From contig JAGWAE010000001.1 in NCBI GenBank assembly GCA_018302135.1, forward strand, positions 1 to 32,000: a DNA stretch of 32,000 nucleotides, in the 5' to 3' direction. A model generated the notes under the pieces. It was not told the origin of the DNA, did no database searches, and worked only from the letters and a program-made list of their open reading frames with translations. Shown here piece by piece: positions 15,696 to 22,344 of the stretch; positions within the stretch are counted from its first letter, which is position 1; every line of letters starts with the position of its first letter. The DNA is from Candidatus Woesearchaeota archaeon. Its GTDB lineage: Archaea > Nanobdellota > Nanobdellia > SCGC-AAA011-G17 > PNOQ01. A program made the translations under genes and the position numbers.

Positions 15696-16241
15696 TTATT
15701 GTTTTAGATCAAGATAAACTTGCCAAGGAGACTTAACACTATATGTAGGTGATTTCATCATATCTATAAACTCATAAGCTACTCTCCATTCAGAATAAGG
15801 TATCTGAAATTTAGCCTCATCATTTTTTATTTTCTTTAAACTTCTTAACAAATTATTTGTAAAATTCCAAACTTCTTTATTATCTCCTTTATTAACTTCA
15901 TATCTATCCATTAATCTTGAAAAATGCTCAAATATCTCACTGTAGTTAACTGATTCCCTAATATCATCCATAAAAAAATTGTGCATCTTATCAGAATCAC
16001 GAAAGTTGTCCAAAAAATCAACAAGTTTACCTAAACTTGGAACATTTTGAAGCTTATCCATTCCATACAACTCTTTTAAAAGATTAAGATGAAACATCCT
16101 CCATTCCAAAGAAAGATATGCTTCATCATCAAGATAACCTAAAAGTTCCAAATCAGTTTGAGTTCCTAATTGAATGGGATCATACTTTCTAGAACCAATT
16201 TGTCCCAGACTCGGAGCATAAAGAGAATCGTCAAAATTCAT
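15696..16241 (-). CDS. Acidic hypothetical protein
   Basis: 181 aa with no recognised motif. It lies 2 nt downstream of TrmB and 32 nt upstream of pheS on the same strand. Confidence 0.55.
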   Translation of the reverse strand: MNFDDSLYAPSLGQIGSRKYDPIQLGTQTDLELLGYLDDEAYLSLEWRMFHLNLLKELYGMDKLQNVPSLGKLVDFLDNFRDSDKMHNFFMDDIRESVNYSEIFEHFSRLMDRYEVNKGDNKEVWNFTNNLLRSLKKIKNDEAKFQIPYSEWRVAYEFIDMMKSPTYSVKSPWQVYLDLKQ

Positions 16242-16243
16242 TT

Positions 16244-17041
16244 TTACCTGCTTTTATTCCAAGCATTTTCAAATAATGAAGACAATGAACTTGCAAAGAA
16301 AGGAGTATTAACCCAAACCCCAATATCATTTTTATCTACTATCTTCTCATCATCAGTTAACATAAATATTAAGTTTTCTTCATCAACTAAAACAAATCTT
16401 GAATTCATTCCTTTTAATTCTTTTATTGTTGCGATTCCTTTCAAATCTTTAGCAATACTCTCAGATTCTCCAGTCATTGGTGCAACTATTCTAATTTTCA
16501 CACCATTAGCAGCTAATCTTTTCAATACATATTTCAAACTATCAACTTTTCTTATTAAACCTTTTTCAGTTGTAGAAATAACAACAGATTTTTTAGCTGA
16601 TTTTAACATTGTTTCAATTTGGTCATATATATTTCTTCTTCCTCTTAAGGAACCTGAAATAGTTGTTGGATCAACATGGTCCACACCATTCTTGAACAAT
16701 AAGTCTAAATCATCAAAAAATTCACTATCTTTTAAAGTATCAATAACTAGTGCTTTTTGAGAAGCATCTTGTAAAACAGTTTTTTTAACTCTGCTTATAA
16801 CTTCTTCAGGAGAAACAGCCAAATATTTTATTGGTTTACCTAATTTCATTAAAATAAATCCTCTCTTTTCAAGAGATTCTAAAACATCATAACTTCTAGA
16901 TCTTGGAACATTACTTATTTCTGCAAGTTCACCAGCTGTAGCTACACCTTTAGATAATAAAGCCATCCATATCTTAGCTTCGTACTCGTTAAGGTCAAAA
17001 GATGACCTGATTCTTTTCAAAAATGTATCATTCATTATCAT
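16244..17041 (-). CDS. trmB: TrmB-family transcriptional regulator (N-terminal winged helix plus C-terminal TrmB_C domain)
   Basis: LNEYEAKIWMALLSKGVATAGELAEISNVPRSRSYDVLESLEKRGF is the TrmB wHTH signature. The track start (17068) lies between a TTTATAAA box (17073-17080) and the expected transcription start, so the ATG at 17041 (MIMNDTF...) is the more likely start. Confidence 0.8.
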   Translation of the reverse strand: MIMNDTFLKRIRSSFDLNEYEAKIWMALLSKGVATAGELAEISNVPRSRSYDVLESLEKRGFILMKLGKPIKYLAVSPEEVISRVKKTVLQDASQKALVIDTLKDSEFFDDLDLLFKNGVDHVDPTTISGSLRGRRNIYDQIETMLKSAKKSVVISTTEKGLIRKVDSLKYVLKRLAANGVKIRIVAPMTGESESIAKDLKGIATIKELKGMNSRFVLVDEENLIFMLTDDEKIVDKNDIGVWVNTPFFASSLSSLFENAWNKSR

Positions 17042-17072
17042 TTTAATCACTAAGGTTAGATAAAACATGTTA

Positions 17073-17080
17073 TTTATAAA
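17073..17080. promoter_or_regulatory. Palindromic TATA box (TTTATAAA) in the TrmB / RHS divergent intergenic region
   Basis: Consensus archaeal TATA element centred about 35 nt upstream of the 17041 ATG on the minus strand. Confidence 0.35.
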
Positions 17081-17160
17081 TCTTTCGGTTATTGTTATCT
17101 ATTAGTAGTAAATGGTCCTTTATTAAAAAGCCTTAAAAAACAATAGCAATTCCCTATTTC

Positions 17161-18492
17161 ATGAAGTATCTAATAGTGATTATCTTAATTTTTTTATTGG
17201 TTTCTTCAGCAACAGCTGGCCAATTAACAATGTCTCCATCCGAAGAATTAGATTACATTGAAATCCCAGAAATCATAAAGAATATAACAATAAATATCAC
17301 AGATAATATAACAGAAAATATTAGCATAATAAACATAACTGATAATATAACTATTATCCACATTACAGACAATATAAGTATTATAAATATCACAGATAAT
17401 ATTAGTATTATTAATATTACCGATAATCTTAGTATTATAAATTTAACAAACATTACTGACATTAACCTAACAGAATTTAATATTACTGAAGATAATCTTA
17501 CAGACAATTTAACATTAAATCAAACAGAGATATTAGAATCCCCAGAATTTGAACAATTACAATATAATACTACAAATTATTATTATGCAGGCCCTAGATT
17601 ACTTGCCTCAGAAGCTAACGAAGTTATTACTTATCATTACCAAGATAGATTAGGTAGTGATGTTAATTCTAAAACACTACCTTTTGGGCAAGAAATTATT
17701 AACGATGAGAGATTTTCATTTACTGGAAAAGAGTTGGATGATGAATTGTATTATTTTAATGCTAGGTATTATGATTCTGATTTAGGAAGATTTACTTCTA
17801 TAGATCCGATTAATGAAAATGAACCATACTCTTATGTTGAAAATAATCCAGTTAATTATGTAGACCCAGATGGAAAAGATTCTGTCAACACAATTATAAG
17901 AGTAGTCAGTTTTAGTAGGGCATATTTTGAAGCAGAAAATGCAAAACAAAAAGCGAAAGTTATAGCAAAAAGAGCTTTATCTCAATCAGTAAGATATACA
18001 AATGATCAAATAGATGATCTTGGTTTAAGTTCATCATCTAGAACTATATTAAAAACAAATGTTAGAGTTTTAGACAATGCAGTTAAATTAGTTTTAAGTG
18101 ATGAAGAAAACAAAGCAGAATTATTAAAAGATAATTTAGTAGAAGATACAATAATGACTGTATTCAAGGGCCCACTTGGCACCACGTGTTATGGAGCATG
18201 TAAAGATGCAACAAAAACATTGATTGAATTCACAGATTCTGAATCCACGCTAACTCCAAAAAATTTAGACAAACTAAAAAATATTGAAGACTCCCAAGAA
18301 GAATTTGAATACAACGGAGAACGTCCATTATTTGATTGGGAGTCTAGCCCAACTTTAAAGATGGCTTTAGAAGAATATGAATCAGACTGGACTAAATGGT
18401 GGTCCTTACAAGACACCGTAGCATCATCAGATCTACCATTAATGAACGGAGCAAACGTAGAAATAAGAAAGGATTTAGTTATTATCAATTAA
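17161..18492 (+). CDS. Secreted RHS repeat-associated core domain protein: signal peptide, N-X-S/T repeat stalk, RHS core ending in DPDG, and an unassigned 205-aa C-terminal domain (polymorphic-toxin-like)
   Basis: 443 aa with signal peptide MKYLIVIILIFLLVSSATAG. The segment YHYQDRLGS...PFGQEI...FSFTGKELDDELYYFNARYYDSDLGRFTSIDPI...YSYVENNPVNYVDPDGK matches the RHS-associated core (YD repeats, RYYDxxxGRFxxxDP, NNPxnxxDPxG). I do not recognise the C-terminal domain. Confidence 0.8.
   Translation: MKYLIVIILIFLLVSSATAGQLTMSPSEELDYIEIPEIIKNITINITDNITENISIINITDNITIIHITDNISIINITDNISIINITDNLSIINLTNITDINLTEFNITEDNLTDNLTLNQTEILESPEFEQLQYNTTNYYYAGPRLLASEANEVITYHYQDRLGSDVNSKTLPFGQEIINDERFSFTGKELDDELYYFNARYYDSDLGRFTSIDPINENEPYSYVENNPVNYVDPDGKDSVNTIIRVVSFSRAYFEAENAKQKAKVIAKRALSQSVRYTNDQIDDLGLSSSSRTILKTNVRVLDNAVKLVLSDEENKAELLKDNLVEDTIMTVFKGPLGTTCYGACKDATKTLIEFTDSESTLTPKNLDKLKNIEDSQEEFEYNGERPLFDWESSPTLKMALEEYESDWTKWWSLQDTVASSDLPLMNGANVEIRKDLVIIN
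17281..17526 (+). repeat. In-frame tandem repeat region rich in N-glycosylation sequons, including four consecutive 27-nt (NITDNISII) units at 17332-17439
   Basis: Read from the translation: NITINITDNITENISIINITDNITIIHITDNISIINITDNISIINITDNLSIINLTNITDINLTEFNITEDNLTDNLTLNQT. I count 18 N-X-S/T sequons in residues 41-122, and a 19th at N136. Confidence 0.85.
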
Positions 18493-19128
18493 CTCTTGAT
18501 ACTTTTCATAAACTTTTTTAGATTTATCAGTAAGCCCAAAATCTCTCAAAGTAGAACCGTATGTTATCAACGCAGCAATATACGTCTGTTTAAAATCTTC
18601 ACTTTCATTAAAAGTTTTTTCCCCATCAATAACAGCACGTTCAAGATGCTTAAGTGCCATAGAATAATTTCCTTTAGTTAAATATAAATTTCCAAGCATA
18701 GTATCTAGTTCAAAATATCTGTACCTTTTATCAACAGGAATTTTTTGAATAATCTCACCATAAAGACTATCTGCACGAGCTACATCATAAGTTTTATAAC
18801 AACTATCTAAAAATTGATTAAGTAAAGAAGATTCATTTGAAGAATCAACTACTGCTTCTAGACCTATACTAGCAGTTGCAGCATCTATTAATCTATTTTT
18901 AAGGCTATCATTTTCAGTAGATTTTAAATCAGGTAAATATTCCACAGTTTCACTAGTAGGGTCAGAAGAATAATTCTGCGTTGACCTAAACCAATTATCA
19001 CACGAAAGTATAAGTGCAGCTCCAGCCAATGCACTAATTATCATCGGACCCGTATATTTCCTTAAAAAACTACGCTCTTCAGGAACATTAATTTCATCTT
19101 CATCAATAACAATATTTTTCTTTACCAT
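18475..19128 (-). CDS. Membrane-anchored (possibly lipobox-bearing) TPR-like protein
   Basis: 217 aa with a single hydrophobic helix (GPMIISALAGAALILSC). The C-terminal LGNLYLTKGNYSMALKHLERAV is TPR-like. It converges on the RHS gene, and the 3' ends overlap by 18 nt. Confidence 0.6.
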   Translation of the reverse strand: MVKKNIVIDEDEINVPEERSFLRKYTGPMIISALAGAALILSCDNWFRSTQNYSSDPTSETVEYLPDLKSTENDSLKNRLIDAATASIGLEAVVDSSNESSLLNQFLDSCYKTYDVARADSLYGEIIQKIPVDKRYRYFELDTMLGNLYLTKGNYSMALKHLERAVIDGEKTFNESEDFKQTYIAALITYGSTLRDFGLTDKSKKVYEKYQELIDNN

Positions 19129-19166: not shown

Positions 19167-20249
19167 CTATTTGTTACTACTCTTAACTAAAAAATCATTT
19201 AATTCTTTCTTGGCTTTTTCTCTTTTTCTTTGATGTTCAGCCATAAACTTTTGTAGCTTTTTTATAGTATATTCTTTCAATTCAGAAGTCAACATTTTAC
19301 CAGATTTATAATCATCATGTATTTGTTTTAATTTTTTATCATCCTCTTCTAAAAATAAATTCAAATATTGATAACAAACATCAACATCGGGGTTTCCTCC
19401 AAGTTTTCTATGTTCCTCAATAGTTTTTTGCCCACCAGAAAAAGCTCTTTTCATCTTATATTCAATTTCTTTGGCACTGTCACTAGTATAAATAGCAGAC
19501 AATGGATCAGAAGCACTCATTTTAACAGTACCTTGTAACCCCGGCATAAATTTAGATAATATATCACCAGGTTTAGGCATCTTTAATTTATATGCGACAT
19601 CTCTTGCCAATTTAATAAAAACATCTTGATCAATACCAACCACAACCAAACTCGGAACTTTATATTTCAATGTTGGATATAATATATGTGCAATTTGCAT
19701 TGCAGGATAAAAACCAATACCTATATTTTTATCATCTTTAAAACCAAAAGCAGATTTCACAGTACTATAAGTCATAGTCTTAGAGCATTTTATAGCCAAA
19801 TTATACAATTCTTGATTCATATTTTCAAAATCAATTATAATCTCAGTTTTTTTAGGATCAAAACCTAAAGCTATTATATCCAAAGCATTTTCATAAGCTA
19901 GTTTTTTAGCATCTTCTAAACTTAACTCAGGTTTAAACAAAAACTTTTCATCATCAGAAAAAGGAATGAAAACTCTACAACCAAATTTATCCTGCATTTC
20001 TTTAACAAATTTGAATATTTGCAGATGTGCTAAAGTTAATTTCTCTGAAGGGCCTCTTCCAGAAACAATAGCAAAATCTTTTTTTAATATATTATCCAAG
20101 TCTCTATGAGCAAAAAATATTTCTTTATCAATTAATCTAATACCAGCTAGCTTAGTCTTTAATTTGTGATCTATAATACTAGCTCCAAACTCTTTGACTG
20201 CTTTATTATAGTCAACTTCTCCTTCCACTTCATACGGTGTGATTGTCAT
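19167..20249 (-). CDS. trpS: Tryptophan-tRNA ligase (archaeal/eukaryal type)
   Basis: 360 aa. It carries the class I KMSAS motif (VKMSASDP) and a degenerate HIGH region (LTLAHLQIF). The overall pattern is archaeal TrpRS-like. Confidence 0.85.
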   Translation of the reverse strand: MTITPYEVEGEVDYNKAVKEFGASIIDHKLKTKLAGIRLIDKEIFFAHRDLDNILKKDFAIVSGRGPSEKLTLAHLQIFKFVKEMQDKFGCRVFIPFSDDEKFLFKPELSLEDAKKLAYENALDIIALGFDPKKTEIIIDFENMNQELYNLAIKCSKTMTYSTVKSAFGFKDDKNIGIGFYPAMQIAHILYPTLKYKVPSLVVVGIDQDVFIKLARDVAYKLKMPKPGDILSKFMPGLQGTVKMSASDPLSAIYTSDSAKEIEYKMKRAFSGGQKTIEEHRKLGGNPDVDVCYQYLNLFLEEDDKKLKQIHDDYKSGKMLTSELKEYTIKKLQKFMAEHQRKREKAKKELNDFLVKSSNK

Positions 20250-20293: not shown

Positions 20294-21310
20294 ATGGAAA
20301 TACTTTTAAAACACATCGAGTTCAAAACCTTGATGGAAAAAACGCCTAATCTTCAAGTTCCTAAAAAAAGAATAAAAAGAACGGGAGTATATATAAGCAA
20401 ACCACTCAAAAAATTTCTCGAAGAATCAACCCATGCTTATACTGAAACTTTAACCCCTAATAGAGAAGAAGTGTCAATTTATTGTGACCATATTAGTAAA
20501 GCAAAACATGTTCTCATGGGCAAATTTTACGAAGAATTAAGCGGAGCATTTTATGGAGGAATAGTACTTGATGGAAAGTCAATAAGAGAAAATCCGGCTC
20601 AATTAGATATTGATTTTGGAGAACTCGAACAAATGATAAACTGGGAAAATAAACCAAAAGATGAATTATTTATAAAACCTGATATAGTAAACATTGGAAA
20701 ATCAATAGGTGAAGCAAAGGGATGCAAAAGCGGTTCATCACTTCATATTTTTGACGAACAAACAGAAAGATATAGAAAAATACAACTAAGAAGTCCAGCA
20801 CATTCAGTTTACTTTGCAATATACAGACACGCATTTCAGAGAATAAAAGATAAAACGGCTACAATACGCTCGGGTGAAGAAATAATACAAGATTTAAGTT
20901 TATCGACAATGTATTCATTAAAAATTCCATTGAGTATACTCTTGTACTTACATGGAAAATGGTATGGAAATATAAAAGAAACGTTAGGATATAGGTATGG
21001 GAAATCAGATTATCAAGATTGTACGATGGCAAGAGAATTTGCAATAAGAAGTTTATTTCAAGATCCAGAAAAAATAATTGATATGCTTGATTTAAGCCCA
21101 GAAAATTACAAAATTACTAGAAAGTTATCACCAGAAAATTTTACAGTAAGAACTTCACCAGCAGAATCATTAACAACTCTAACACAATTTCCAATACTTA
21201 TGATAGAAGACAAAGACCATGAAAACTGGATTGATTCATTCGTTGAATCTGAAAAAAGATTAGGAACAAACATCCAAGAAATACAAGGAACAGAAGAAGT
21301 TCCTTTCTAA
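20294..21310 (+). CDS. Hypothetical protein with a candidate PD-(D/E)xK nuclease motif
   Basis: 338 aa. FIKPDIVNIGKSIGEAKGCK fits (P)D-x10-E-x-K. I recognise no other family features. Its 3' end overlaps the convergent EamA gene by 4 nt. Confidence 0.55.
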   Translation: MEILLKHIEFKTLMEKTPNLQVPKKRIKRTGVYISKPLKKFLEESTHAYTETLTPNREEVSIYCDHISKAKHVLMGKFYEELSGAFYGGIVLDGKSIRENPAQLDIDFGELEQMINWENKPKDELFIKPDIVNIGKSIGEAKGCKSGSSLHIFDEQTERYRKIQLRSPAHSVYFAIYRHAFQRIKDKTATIRSGEEIIQDLSLSTMYSLKIPLSILLYLHGKWYGNIKETLGYRYGKSDYQDCTMAREFAIRSLFQDPEKIIDMLDLSPENYKITRKLSPENFTVRTSPAESLTTLTQFPILMIEDKDHENWIDSFVESEKRLGTNIQEIQGTEEVPF

Positions 21311-22258: not shown

Positions 22259-22344
22259 GGGGTTGTAGCATAAGCCGGTAGTGTCTTCGGCTCCAGAAAA
22301 ATTAGAGCAACCGAAGGATCAGGGTTCAAATCCCTGCAGCCCCA
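22259..22344 (+). tRNA. tRNA-Trp (anticodon CCA at 22293-22295) with a roughly 13-nt intron at or next to the canonical 37/38 position
   Basis: Folded by hand. The acceptor stem is GGGGTTG/CAGCCCC with discriminator A. The D-arm is GCAT-AAGCCGGTA-GTGT, with A14, G18, G19 and A21 in place. The anticodon stem is TTCGG/CCGAA around the loop CTCCAGA, with 13 extra nt between. The variable loop is GGAT and the T-arm is CAGGG-TTCAAAT-CCCTG. A T6 tract follows the gene. Confidence 0.8.

Follow-up and report, generated by a model that had tools for sequence, protein, structure and literature searches.

A 32,000-nucleotide stretch of DNA from "Candidatus Woesearchaeota archaeon" (contig JAGWAE010000001.1, positions 1 to 32,000; referred to below as the window) encodes a short protein built around the plug of bacterial Rhs proteins. 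The open reading frame (ORF) at positions 17161 to 18492 of the plus strand starts with ATG and yields a 443-residue protein, in which a signal peptide and a stalk of N-glycosylation sequons precede the plug and a variable C-terminal domain (CT) follows it. The architecture of this protein, its homology to Rhs proteins, the conservation of its catalytic residues, the polymorphism of its CT with a sharp breakpoint, and the co-variation of the CT with a partner gene are established by the comparisons described here. With a confidence slightly better than even, we read it as a shell-less polymorphic effector that is Sec-exported, N-glycosylated, and self-cleaving and whose cognate partner is exported and encoded convergently. 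In this reading, the export and glycosylation of the protein, its self-cleavage in the absence of a shell, its toxicity, and the immunity role of the partner are inferred. The NCBI entry for the protein is named [quoted passage not shown] Its parts are as follows.

17161 to 17217, plus strand: Sec-type signal peptide, residues 1 to 19, with predicted cleavage between ATA and GQ (hydropathy, AlphaFold2 [AF2] helix, and family consensus).
17227 to 17565, plus strand: predicted N-glycosylated stalk, residues 23 to 135, with 18 N-x-S/T sequons (sequon count, repeats, and AF2).
17572 to 17877, plus strand: Rhs plug, residues 138 to 239, comprising the last YD-like hairpins and the RHS-associated core (TIGR03696, PDB profiles, and invariant columns).
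17764 to 17766 (R202), 17803 to 17805 (D215), and 17863 to 17865 (D235), plus strand: aspartyl-protease residues, assigned by homology from the alignment to YenC2.
17878 to 18489, plus strand: class A CT, the putative cargo, residues 240 to 443, predicted to be all-alpha with a terminal beta-hairpin; an effector role is suggested.

The preliminary description of this gene had proposed an RHS-associated core, and the hidden Markov model (HMM) search that it called for gave a strong match: the NCBIfam model TIGR03696 (Rhs_assc_core) covers residues 174 to 238 at model positions 3 to 75 of 76, with 70.5 bits against a cutoff of 32.5 (E = 1.3e-19). In PDB profile searches, the family profile matches the plugs of the solved YenC2, TccC3, Rhs, Tse5, and mosquito SGS1 structures, and these matches are confined to the plug and do not extend into the CT. 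In the HMM alignment, with positions counted along the alignment, R202, D215, and D235 of the query correspond to R650, D663, and D686 of YenC2. In the solved structures, the N-terminal fragments extend one residue past the Gly of the DPxG motif (chain 4igl_B at residue 690, 8h8a_A at 1152, 4o9x_A at 2191, 6l7i_G at 664, and 8cp6_B at 1121). R202, D215, D235, and G238 are invariant in all 97 members of the family described below, and position 239 is occupied by M, R, T, or K. Experiments on Photorhabdus laumondii Rhs1 proved that the Asp in its second DPxGL motif is the catalytic residue, and the cargo follows directly after this motif (PMC8636562). Based on the homology with YenC2 and the other solved Rhs fragments, cleavage is predicted after K239 (DPDG-K). 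The domain that had been placed after DPDG is thus present, and the predicted cleavage site moves its boundaries from residues 239 to 443 to residues 240 to 443.

The beta-cocoon of canonical Rhs proteins is absent, as had been proposed. Neither RHS_repeat nor TEN_YD-shell of Pfam matches the 443-residue protein, and only 137 residues precede the plug, 113 of which form the disordered sequon stalk. The "few YD repeats" seen earlier are real, and they amount to only about three beta-strands (residues 138 to 158) plus the segment YHYQDRLGSD, all of which correspond by homology to the final hairpins before the core in canonical Rhs proteins. The AF2 model shows residues 138 to 158 as confident hairpins (predicted local distance difference test score [pLDDT] of ~90), with lower confidence for the rest of the plug. 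The bacterial Rhs and TcC proteins (YenC2, TccC3, P. laumondii Rhs1, and Tse5) share with the query the homologous plug, the R/D/D residues, the two DP motifs, and a variable cargo directly after DPxG-x. In contrast, the query has ~35 residues of YD-like hairpin instead of a cocoon of 700 to 1,300 residues, a Sec signal and a predicted glycosylated stalk instead of a PAAR, VgrG, or TcB-docking N terminus, and a partner gene that is convergent and predicted to be exported rather than co-directional. Pfam and NCBIfam searches for N-terminal trafficking domains of the PAAR/VgrG, TcB, or type VII secretion system type found none, leaving the Sec-type signal as the only one.

The signal peptide and the sequon-repeat stalk, both noticed in the preliminary description, also held up. 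The N terminus, MKYLIVIILIFLLVSSATA followed by GQ, consists of an n-region, a hydrophobic core (Kyte-Doolittle maximum of 2.4 over residues 4 to 22), and an AxA site; AF2 makes residues 2 to 22 helical with a pLDDT of ~90, and the N-terminal consensus across the family is MKxxVIxxxLLxxxxPxxxA. One deposited homologue (P0002) begins at an internal GTG, and an in-frame ATG upstream of it (L007:3901-3975) restores the signal peptide MRYLLALLIILLLISQVAA, so that this gene call is N-terminally truncated. Every Asn residue of the stalk falls in a sequon. Shuffling the stalk residues gave 3.6 +/- 1.6 sequons, with a maximum of 9 in 2,000 shuffles, compared to the actual 18, and only one more sequon is found in the remaining 308 residues of the protein. 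The orthologues carry 17 to 25 sequons each. At the DNA level, the stalk is a 27-nucleotide tandem repeat (positions 17308 to 17448), and it is disordered in the AF2 model (pLDDT below 50). The surface display suggested in the preliminary description is conjectural: no C-terminal anchor is found in the 443-residue protein, and the Sec signal looks cleavable.

Database searches place the query in a family of ~97 short proteins (260 to 530 residues) from Woesearchaeota and Nanoarchaeota that share a single plan: a signal peptide, an N-terminal segment of 30 to 170 residues, a plug of ~100 residues, in which 18 columns are invariant, and a variable CT (median length, 236 residues). The closest loci all come from metagenome-assembled genomes of Woesearchaeota or Nanoarchaeota, which frequently encode several copies each. 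Two homologues (P0035 and P0040) are labeled "Cryomorphaceae bacterium" in NCBI; their contig carries archaeal genes for L21e, Rpb4, and S13/S4/S11, so this label is probably a binning error.

Beyond the plug, the family falls apart. The CTs of the 97 members form 67 unrelated BLAST clusters. Of 96 alignments to the query, 25 stop at residue 238, and 75% have stopped by residue 244; tandem paralogues in four loci (L013, L017, L022, and L023) are near-identical up to DPxG and unrelated beyond it. These are the abrupt divergence right after DPDG and the polymorphic CT that the preliminary description had expected of the homologues, and the second of these is evident even among 11 syntenic orthologues, which carry three CT classes. 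Polymorphic toxins are defined by just such a combination of a conserved N terminus with non-homologous C termini (PMC3482391), and this is what the family displays in the sense of Zhang et al. (2012): a conserved N-terminal part, non-homologous CTs, and a sharp breakpoint between the two.

The query belongs to a subfamily whose members have a long sequon stalk and sit at the same place in the gene order of at least 10 loci. This order is PheRS-beta, PheRS-alpha, one or more small ORFs, TrmB (minus strand), the RHS-core gene (plus strand), a small convergent gene, and a class I aminoacyl-tRNA synthetase. The slot and its contents are as follows.

16244 to 17068, minus strand (divergent): TrmB-family regulator, left border of the variable slot (Pfam TrmB, 72.5 bits).
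18475 to 19128, minus strand: convergent partner gene encoding a TPR-like protein of 217 residues with an N-terminal hydrophobic segment and a lipobox-like LILSC (Pfam TPR_8 and synteny).
19167 to 20249, minus strand: class I aminoacyl-tRNA synthetase of the Trp/Tyr type, which bounds the variable slot on the right (Pfam tRNA-synt_1b and conserved synteny).
CT classes in the slot: class A, P0001 to P0003 and P0121; class B, P0005, P0011, and P0013; class C, P0004, P0009, P0030, and P0061.

The N terminus and plug of the 11 slot members are 38 to 68% identical in all pairs; their CTs fall into the three classes without detectable mutual homology. The TrmB gene is syntenic in all related loci, with 75 to 78% identity. 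The class A CTs are 25 to 30% identical to the query CT and the products of the genes downstream of them are 28 to 34% identical, as opposed to 67 to 78% identity between genomes for the flanking TrmB and PheRS-alpha, which means that the CT and its partner evolve much faster than their flanks.

The gene after the RHS-core ORF overlaps its 3' end by 18 nucleotides and lies on the minus strand, so that no same-strand gene follows. The preliminary description had concluded that no same-strand immunity gene is present and that the bacterial toxin-immunity rule is broken. This is correct for the strand and probably not in spirit, given that the convergent lipoprotein gene co-varies with the CT. 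Homologues of the partner are found in two further class A loci (L005 and L007) directly downstream of the RHS-core gene, abutting or overlapping its stop codon, and are absent elsewhere in 88 loci (87 plus the window). In the locus of a fourth class A carrier, P0121 (L088), examined as a test of the predicted pairing, a gene for a 196-residue lipoprotein overlaps the stop codon and its product is 34% identical to the partner (E = 5e-15). The class A CT is thus paired with a gene for a TPR-like lipoprotein in 4 of 4 genomes; the scope of this exclusivity is the 88 loci together with the exhaustive HMMER search with the CT described below. When the partner itself was used as the query, only the partner was returned. 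Its TPR assignment is marginal, with 27.1 bits for TPR_8 against a cutoff of 25.7 and all other TPR models below threshold.

Similar pairings are seen with other CTs. Class C loci have their own shared partner family in 2 of 2 genomes (34% identity, E = 1e-11), and in the CT class shared by L022g1 and L020g, each of two paralogues on one contig is followed by a homologous 112-residue transmembrane protein (2 of 2). In another locus (L023:3863-4366), a polytopic membrane protein of 167 residues is encoded on the same strand directly after the short-form RHS-core gene and looks like a classical immunity candidate; partner arrangements therefore differ between loci. In the slot between the TrmB and Trp/Tyr-type synthetase genes, the unit of exchange appears to be the CT together with a small exported protein encoded convergently. 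By this genomic association, the TPR-like lipoprotein is probably an immunity protein, the main alternative being a role as an anchor or co-receptor. An immunity protein located on the outside of the membrane would suggest an activity directed at the envelope, as makes sense for an effector with no delivery route beyond Sec export. Type VI secretion system effectors that act on the envelope have periplasmic or lipoprotein immunity proteins, including the Sel1/TPR-like Tli5. As is predicted for the query partner, these are exported, membrane-anchored repeat proteins encoded beside an effector that acts outside the cytoplasm; they differ from it in not being convergent, and the likeness is one of description.

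The class A CT (204 or 205 residues) had been described as having no recognizable motif, and searches of Pfam, NCBIfam, PHROGs, PADLOC, and PDB sequences gave no significant match. PHROGs and PADLOC also had no match for the neighboring genes. The domain contains no His, which argues against HNH, HExxH, papain-like, or RNase-type chemistry, and no transmembrane-like segment (hydropathy of at most 0.70 over 19 residues). Among its invariant polar residues are S313, E315, E328, Y344, C347, K348, S360, S362, R388, and D418. A word-indexed search with the CT alone missed even its own full-length protein and was replaced by an exhaustive HMMER search of 1.84 billion cluster representatives, in which the class A CT was found in only three relatives, all of them syntenic orthologues. 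A match to the Pfam "Tannase" model was rejected: its score was 20.4 bits against a cutoff of 29.8, it did not match the orthologues, and it was seen in only 1 of 97 members. In the AF2 model of the full protein (97 sequences; overall pLDDT of 58.7), the CT has pLDDT values of 50 to 89. The structure prediction and fold search suggested in the preliminary description thus delivered an all-alpha domain with a hairpin, at low pLDDT and without a fold match.

Several results weigh against the effector interpretation. AF2 on the CT alone (four-sequence alignment) reached a pLDDT of only 45.9, a Foldseek search of the PDB with the full AF2 model gave generic helical bundles with a best E value of 0.34, and the query CT has no match among known toxin families and folds. 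Almost no known toxin domain is present among the 97 CTs of the family. Class B CTs that are 68% identical (in L010 and L011) are followed by unrelated lipoproteins, many family members lie among housekeeping genes without a candidate partner, and two neighboring genes can co-vary through linkage alone. For polymorphic toxin systems, a convergent arrangement of the immunity gene is atypical (PMC3482391), and autoproteolysis has been shown only for plugs embedded in a shell (PMC8636562).

An alternative reading is a polymorphic module for host recognition or adhesion, in which the CT would bind the host surface, the TPR-like lipoprotein would be an anchor or co-receptor, and the plug would serve only as a recombination handle or processing site. 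Known domains are rare in the family CTs: FlgD_ig (three members) and Por_Secre_tail (three members), which are Ig-like or beta-sandwich domains, PT-TG (two members), DUF4846, and a weak CHAP match (one member), with LysM in the CT of one extra locus. PT-TG, CHAP, and LysM are the only toxin- or cell-wall-type hints in the wider family. Readings of HExxH, JAB-like, and NlpC/P60-like motifs in some CTs received no confirmation from Pfam and were dropped. The near absence of toxin domains, the Ig-like and LysM cases, a glycosylated stalk of the kind typical of displayed proteins, the many loci without an immunity candidate, and the TPR of the partner, a generic fold for protein-protein interactions, all speak for adhesion. 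On the other hand, a mere handle has no need of catalytic residues that are invariant in 97 of 97 members, the family includes PT-TG pre-toxin modules and a CHAP-like match, and no anchor is evident once the signal peptide is cleaved. In addition, the replacement of CTs by non-homologous ones with private partners is a hallmark of conflict systems (PMC3482391). We therefore regard the adhesion module as unlikely, if worth keeping in mind.

In the effector interpretation, the signal peptide would carry the protein across the membrane, and the sequon stalk would be glycosylated and serve as a spacer. The plug, with R202, D215, and D235, would then cut after DPDG-K239 and release the 204-residue helical class A domain, which would act beyond the producing cell, on the envelope of a host or a competitor. 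The TPR-like lipoprotein on the outer face of the producer's membrane would be the cognate binding partner, most likely providing immunity, and the CT and partner together would form an exchangeable cassette in the fixed TrmB-TrpRS slot.

A third possibility is that the gene is a non-functional remnant, either an orphan Rhs C-terminal tip or a decaying piece of a full-length rhs gene. Its shell is absent, and short core frames are common among the 35 bacterial loci retrieved in the same scan as the DPANN loci: 13 of them have only 5 to 70 residues ahead of the core, and 22 have more than 550. Orphan rhs tips and cassettes resemble the archaeal genes in that they are short ORFs with a partial core and a variable CT, are often arranged in tandem, and have the core as a shared recombination site. 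However, each of the archaeal genes is complete, having a start codon and a signal peptide of its own as well as an N-terminal segment and a promoter-like element, and the giant YD genes that neighbor some of them (see below) have no core to recombine with. The query has its own ATG, the same architecture recurs in every DPANN locus examined (>25), where the core is always part of a short ORF that begins with a signal peptide, and an identical (100%) protein is encoded on 15 contigs from NCBI, JGI, and ENA records. Together with the 18 invariant columns of the core and the upstream signals, these observations make decay a very improbable explanation.

The intergenic region between TrmB and the RHS-core gene spans 92 nucleotides, and an alignment of the syntenic loci shows elements that are conserved across five genomes. 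One of them could serve the RHS-core gene.

17132 to 17140, plus strand: TATA-like promoter element CTTAAAAAA, 20 nucleotides 5' of the ATG.

In light of archaeal promoter geometry, the position of CTTAAAAAA suggests an archaeal TATA box and a leaderless or near-leaderless mRNA. That this promoter-like element is conserved and that synteny holds across 10 loci or more both point to a functional gene. Two further elements conserved in the same five genomes, TTTATAAA (positions 17073 to 17080) and GTAGTAAA (positions 17105 to 17112), may be a putative TrmB promoter and regulator-binding site; with these two elements, control of the effector gene by the TrmB-family regulator is conceivable.

Some related Woesearchaeota also encode giant YD/RHS-repeat proteins with signal peptides: a 2,212-residue protein with an RHS_repeat match of 58.5 bits (L008:2606-9244) and similar ones at L022:1-2706 and L023:108-1202. 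None of these giants has a core, the family core HMM giving 0.5 bits with all HMMER filters off. They end with ...YD.LGRRV.K...Y.YG...SPL..I, followed in L008 and L022 by dockerin-like DxNxDGxxD repeats. In five loci (L008, L022, L023, L025, and that of P0035), giants are located within 5 kb of short-form genes. In comparison with the canonical archaeal Rhs protein of Theionarchaea (L050, 1,849 residues), the giants end at about residue 1558 and the short-form profile begins at about residue 1572, so that shell and plug tile it as complementary halves. This tiling may be the trace of an old gene fission or may reflect assembly in trans. In L025, three tandem paralogous genes (L025:6108-7441) lie between the short-form RHS-core gene and the start of the giant YD protein; they encode small proteins of 159, 150, and 132 residues that are 27 to 29% identical and have signal peptides and conserved Cys residues.

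These giants make it conceivable that the Rhs machine is split, with the short protein providing plug and cargo, a giant providing the YD shell in trans, and the plug-cargo proteins being interchangeable. In favor of such a split are the absence of a core in the signal-peptide giants, the tiling and the short distances, and the presence in a single assembly (GCA_964344655.1) of both a giant (L008) and a TrmB-linked query orthologue (L010). A precedent of sorts is provided by the TcB-TcC pair of ABC toxins, where the YD cocoon is made from two polypeptides, with plug and cargo on the second. However, TcC adds several hundred shell residues, and TcB and TcC fold together in the cytoplasm. The query is a plug protein without a shell part and would be exported separately; an assembly of this kind is purely hypothetical. 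Several further points count against the split: the window contains no YD giant and no ORF longer than 867 codons, a 113-residue glycosylated stalk before the plug is hard to fit in the shell rim, and the adjacency of the two genes could be a relic of ancestral gene fission. Moreover, both partners have their own signal peptides, so that cargo encapsulation would have to take place after export, for which we know of no precedent. We consider the split arrangement improbable. The same holds, to a similar degree, for its more elaborate form, in which a giant, dockerin-tailed YD shell without a plug and small, separately exported plug-cargo proteins with hundreds of uncharacterized cargo domains, loading or docking in trans and each guarded by a convergent surface-anchored partner, would make up a modular, contact-dependent weapon or host-manipulation system specific to episymbiotic archaea. 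For the query itself, the effector that acts without a shell remains our preferred reading.

The window as a whole has a G+C content of 28.7%. It encodes archaeal housekeeping proteins, including PheRS alpha and beta, TrmB, a class I aminoacyl-tRNA synthetase, an Lhr-type helicase, and diphthamide synthase. With archaeal genes on both flanks and the label "Candidatus Woesearchaeota" (DPANN), the archaeal origin assumed in the preliminary description is confirmed, and a mis-binned bacterial origin was rejected in view of the PheRS alpha and beta, TrmB, and diphthamide synthase genes in the flanks. An ORF of 338 codons (positions 20294 to 21310) is conserved among the contigs bearing the query protein and has no match in Pfam, NCBIfam, PHROGs, or PADLOC. 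Rfam finds an 86-nucleotide tRNA on the plus strand at positions 22259 to 22344 (48.3 bits), and ARAGORN reports none in the window; a possible explanation is an archaeal tRNA that contains an intron or is atypical in some other way. A second variable slot lies between PheRS-alpha and TrmB (positions 15696 to 16241; also L005:3642-4264 and L007:2608-3007). In the window, it holds a single ORF of 181 codons without a family match, and in the syntenic genomes it holds two small unrelated ORFs (93 and 90, 69 and 62, or 71 and 77 codons).

The RHS-core annotation of this gene is already public, and what is added here is the family-level picture. Among archaea, classical RHS polymorphic toxins are encoded by Methanosarcina acetivorans (Zhang et al. 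2012, PMC3482391), and classical polymorphic toxin systems were reported to be rare in archaea (PMC3482391). These toxins, like that of Theionarchaea, resemble the query in having an RHS core followed by a variable CT, but they are full-length proteins with a complete shell (e.g., 1,849 residues), whereas the DPANN family is uniformly 260 to 530 residues long. In the literature searched, which did not include the archaeal survey of Makarova et al. (2019, mBio), we found no report linking Woesearchaeota or DPANN archaea to RHS-core effectors.

The means by which DPANN archaea attack, hold, or exploit other cells are largely unknown, and the locus described here bears on this question. Given the giant YD proteins that lack a plug, a split Rhs machine is a possibility, and the TrmB-TrpRS slot with its exchangeable cassettes supplies CT/lipoprotein pairs that are directly testable. 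If the plug cleaves without a shell, the view of the cocoon as necessary for Rhs processing would change. Across the family, the plug alone is reused as a universal adaptor, joined to dozens of cargo domains that are unrelated to one another and for the most part unannotated; should these domains be effectors, they would constitute a large untapped reservoir of new activities directed against hosts or competitors.

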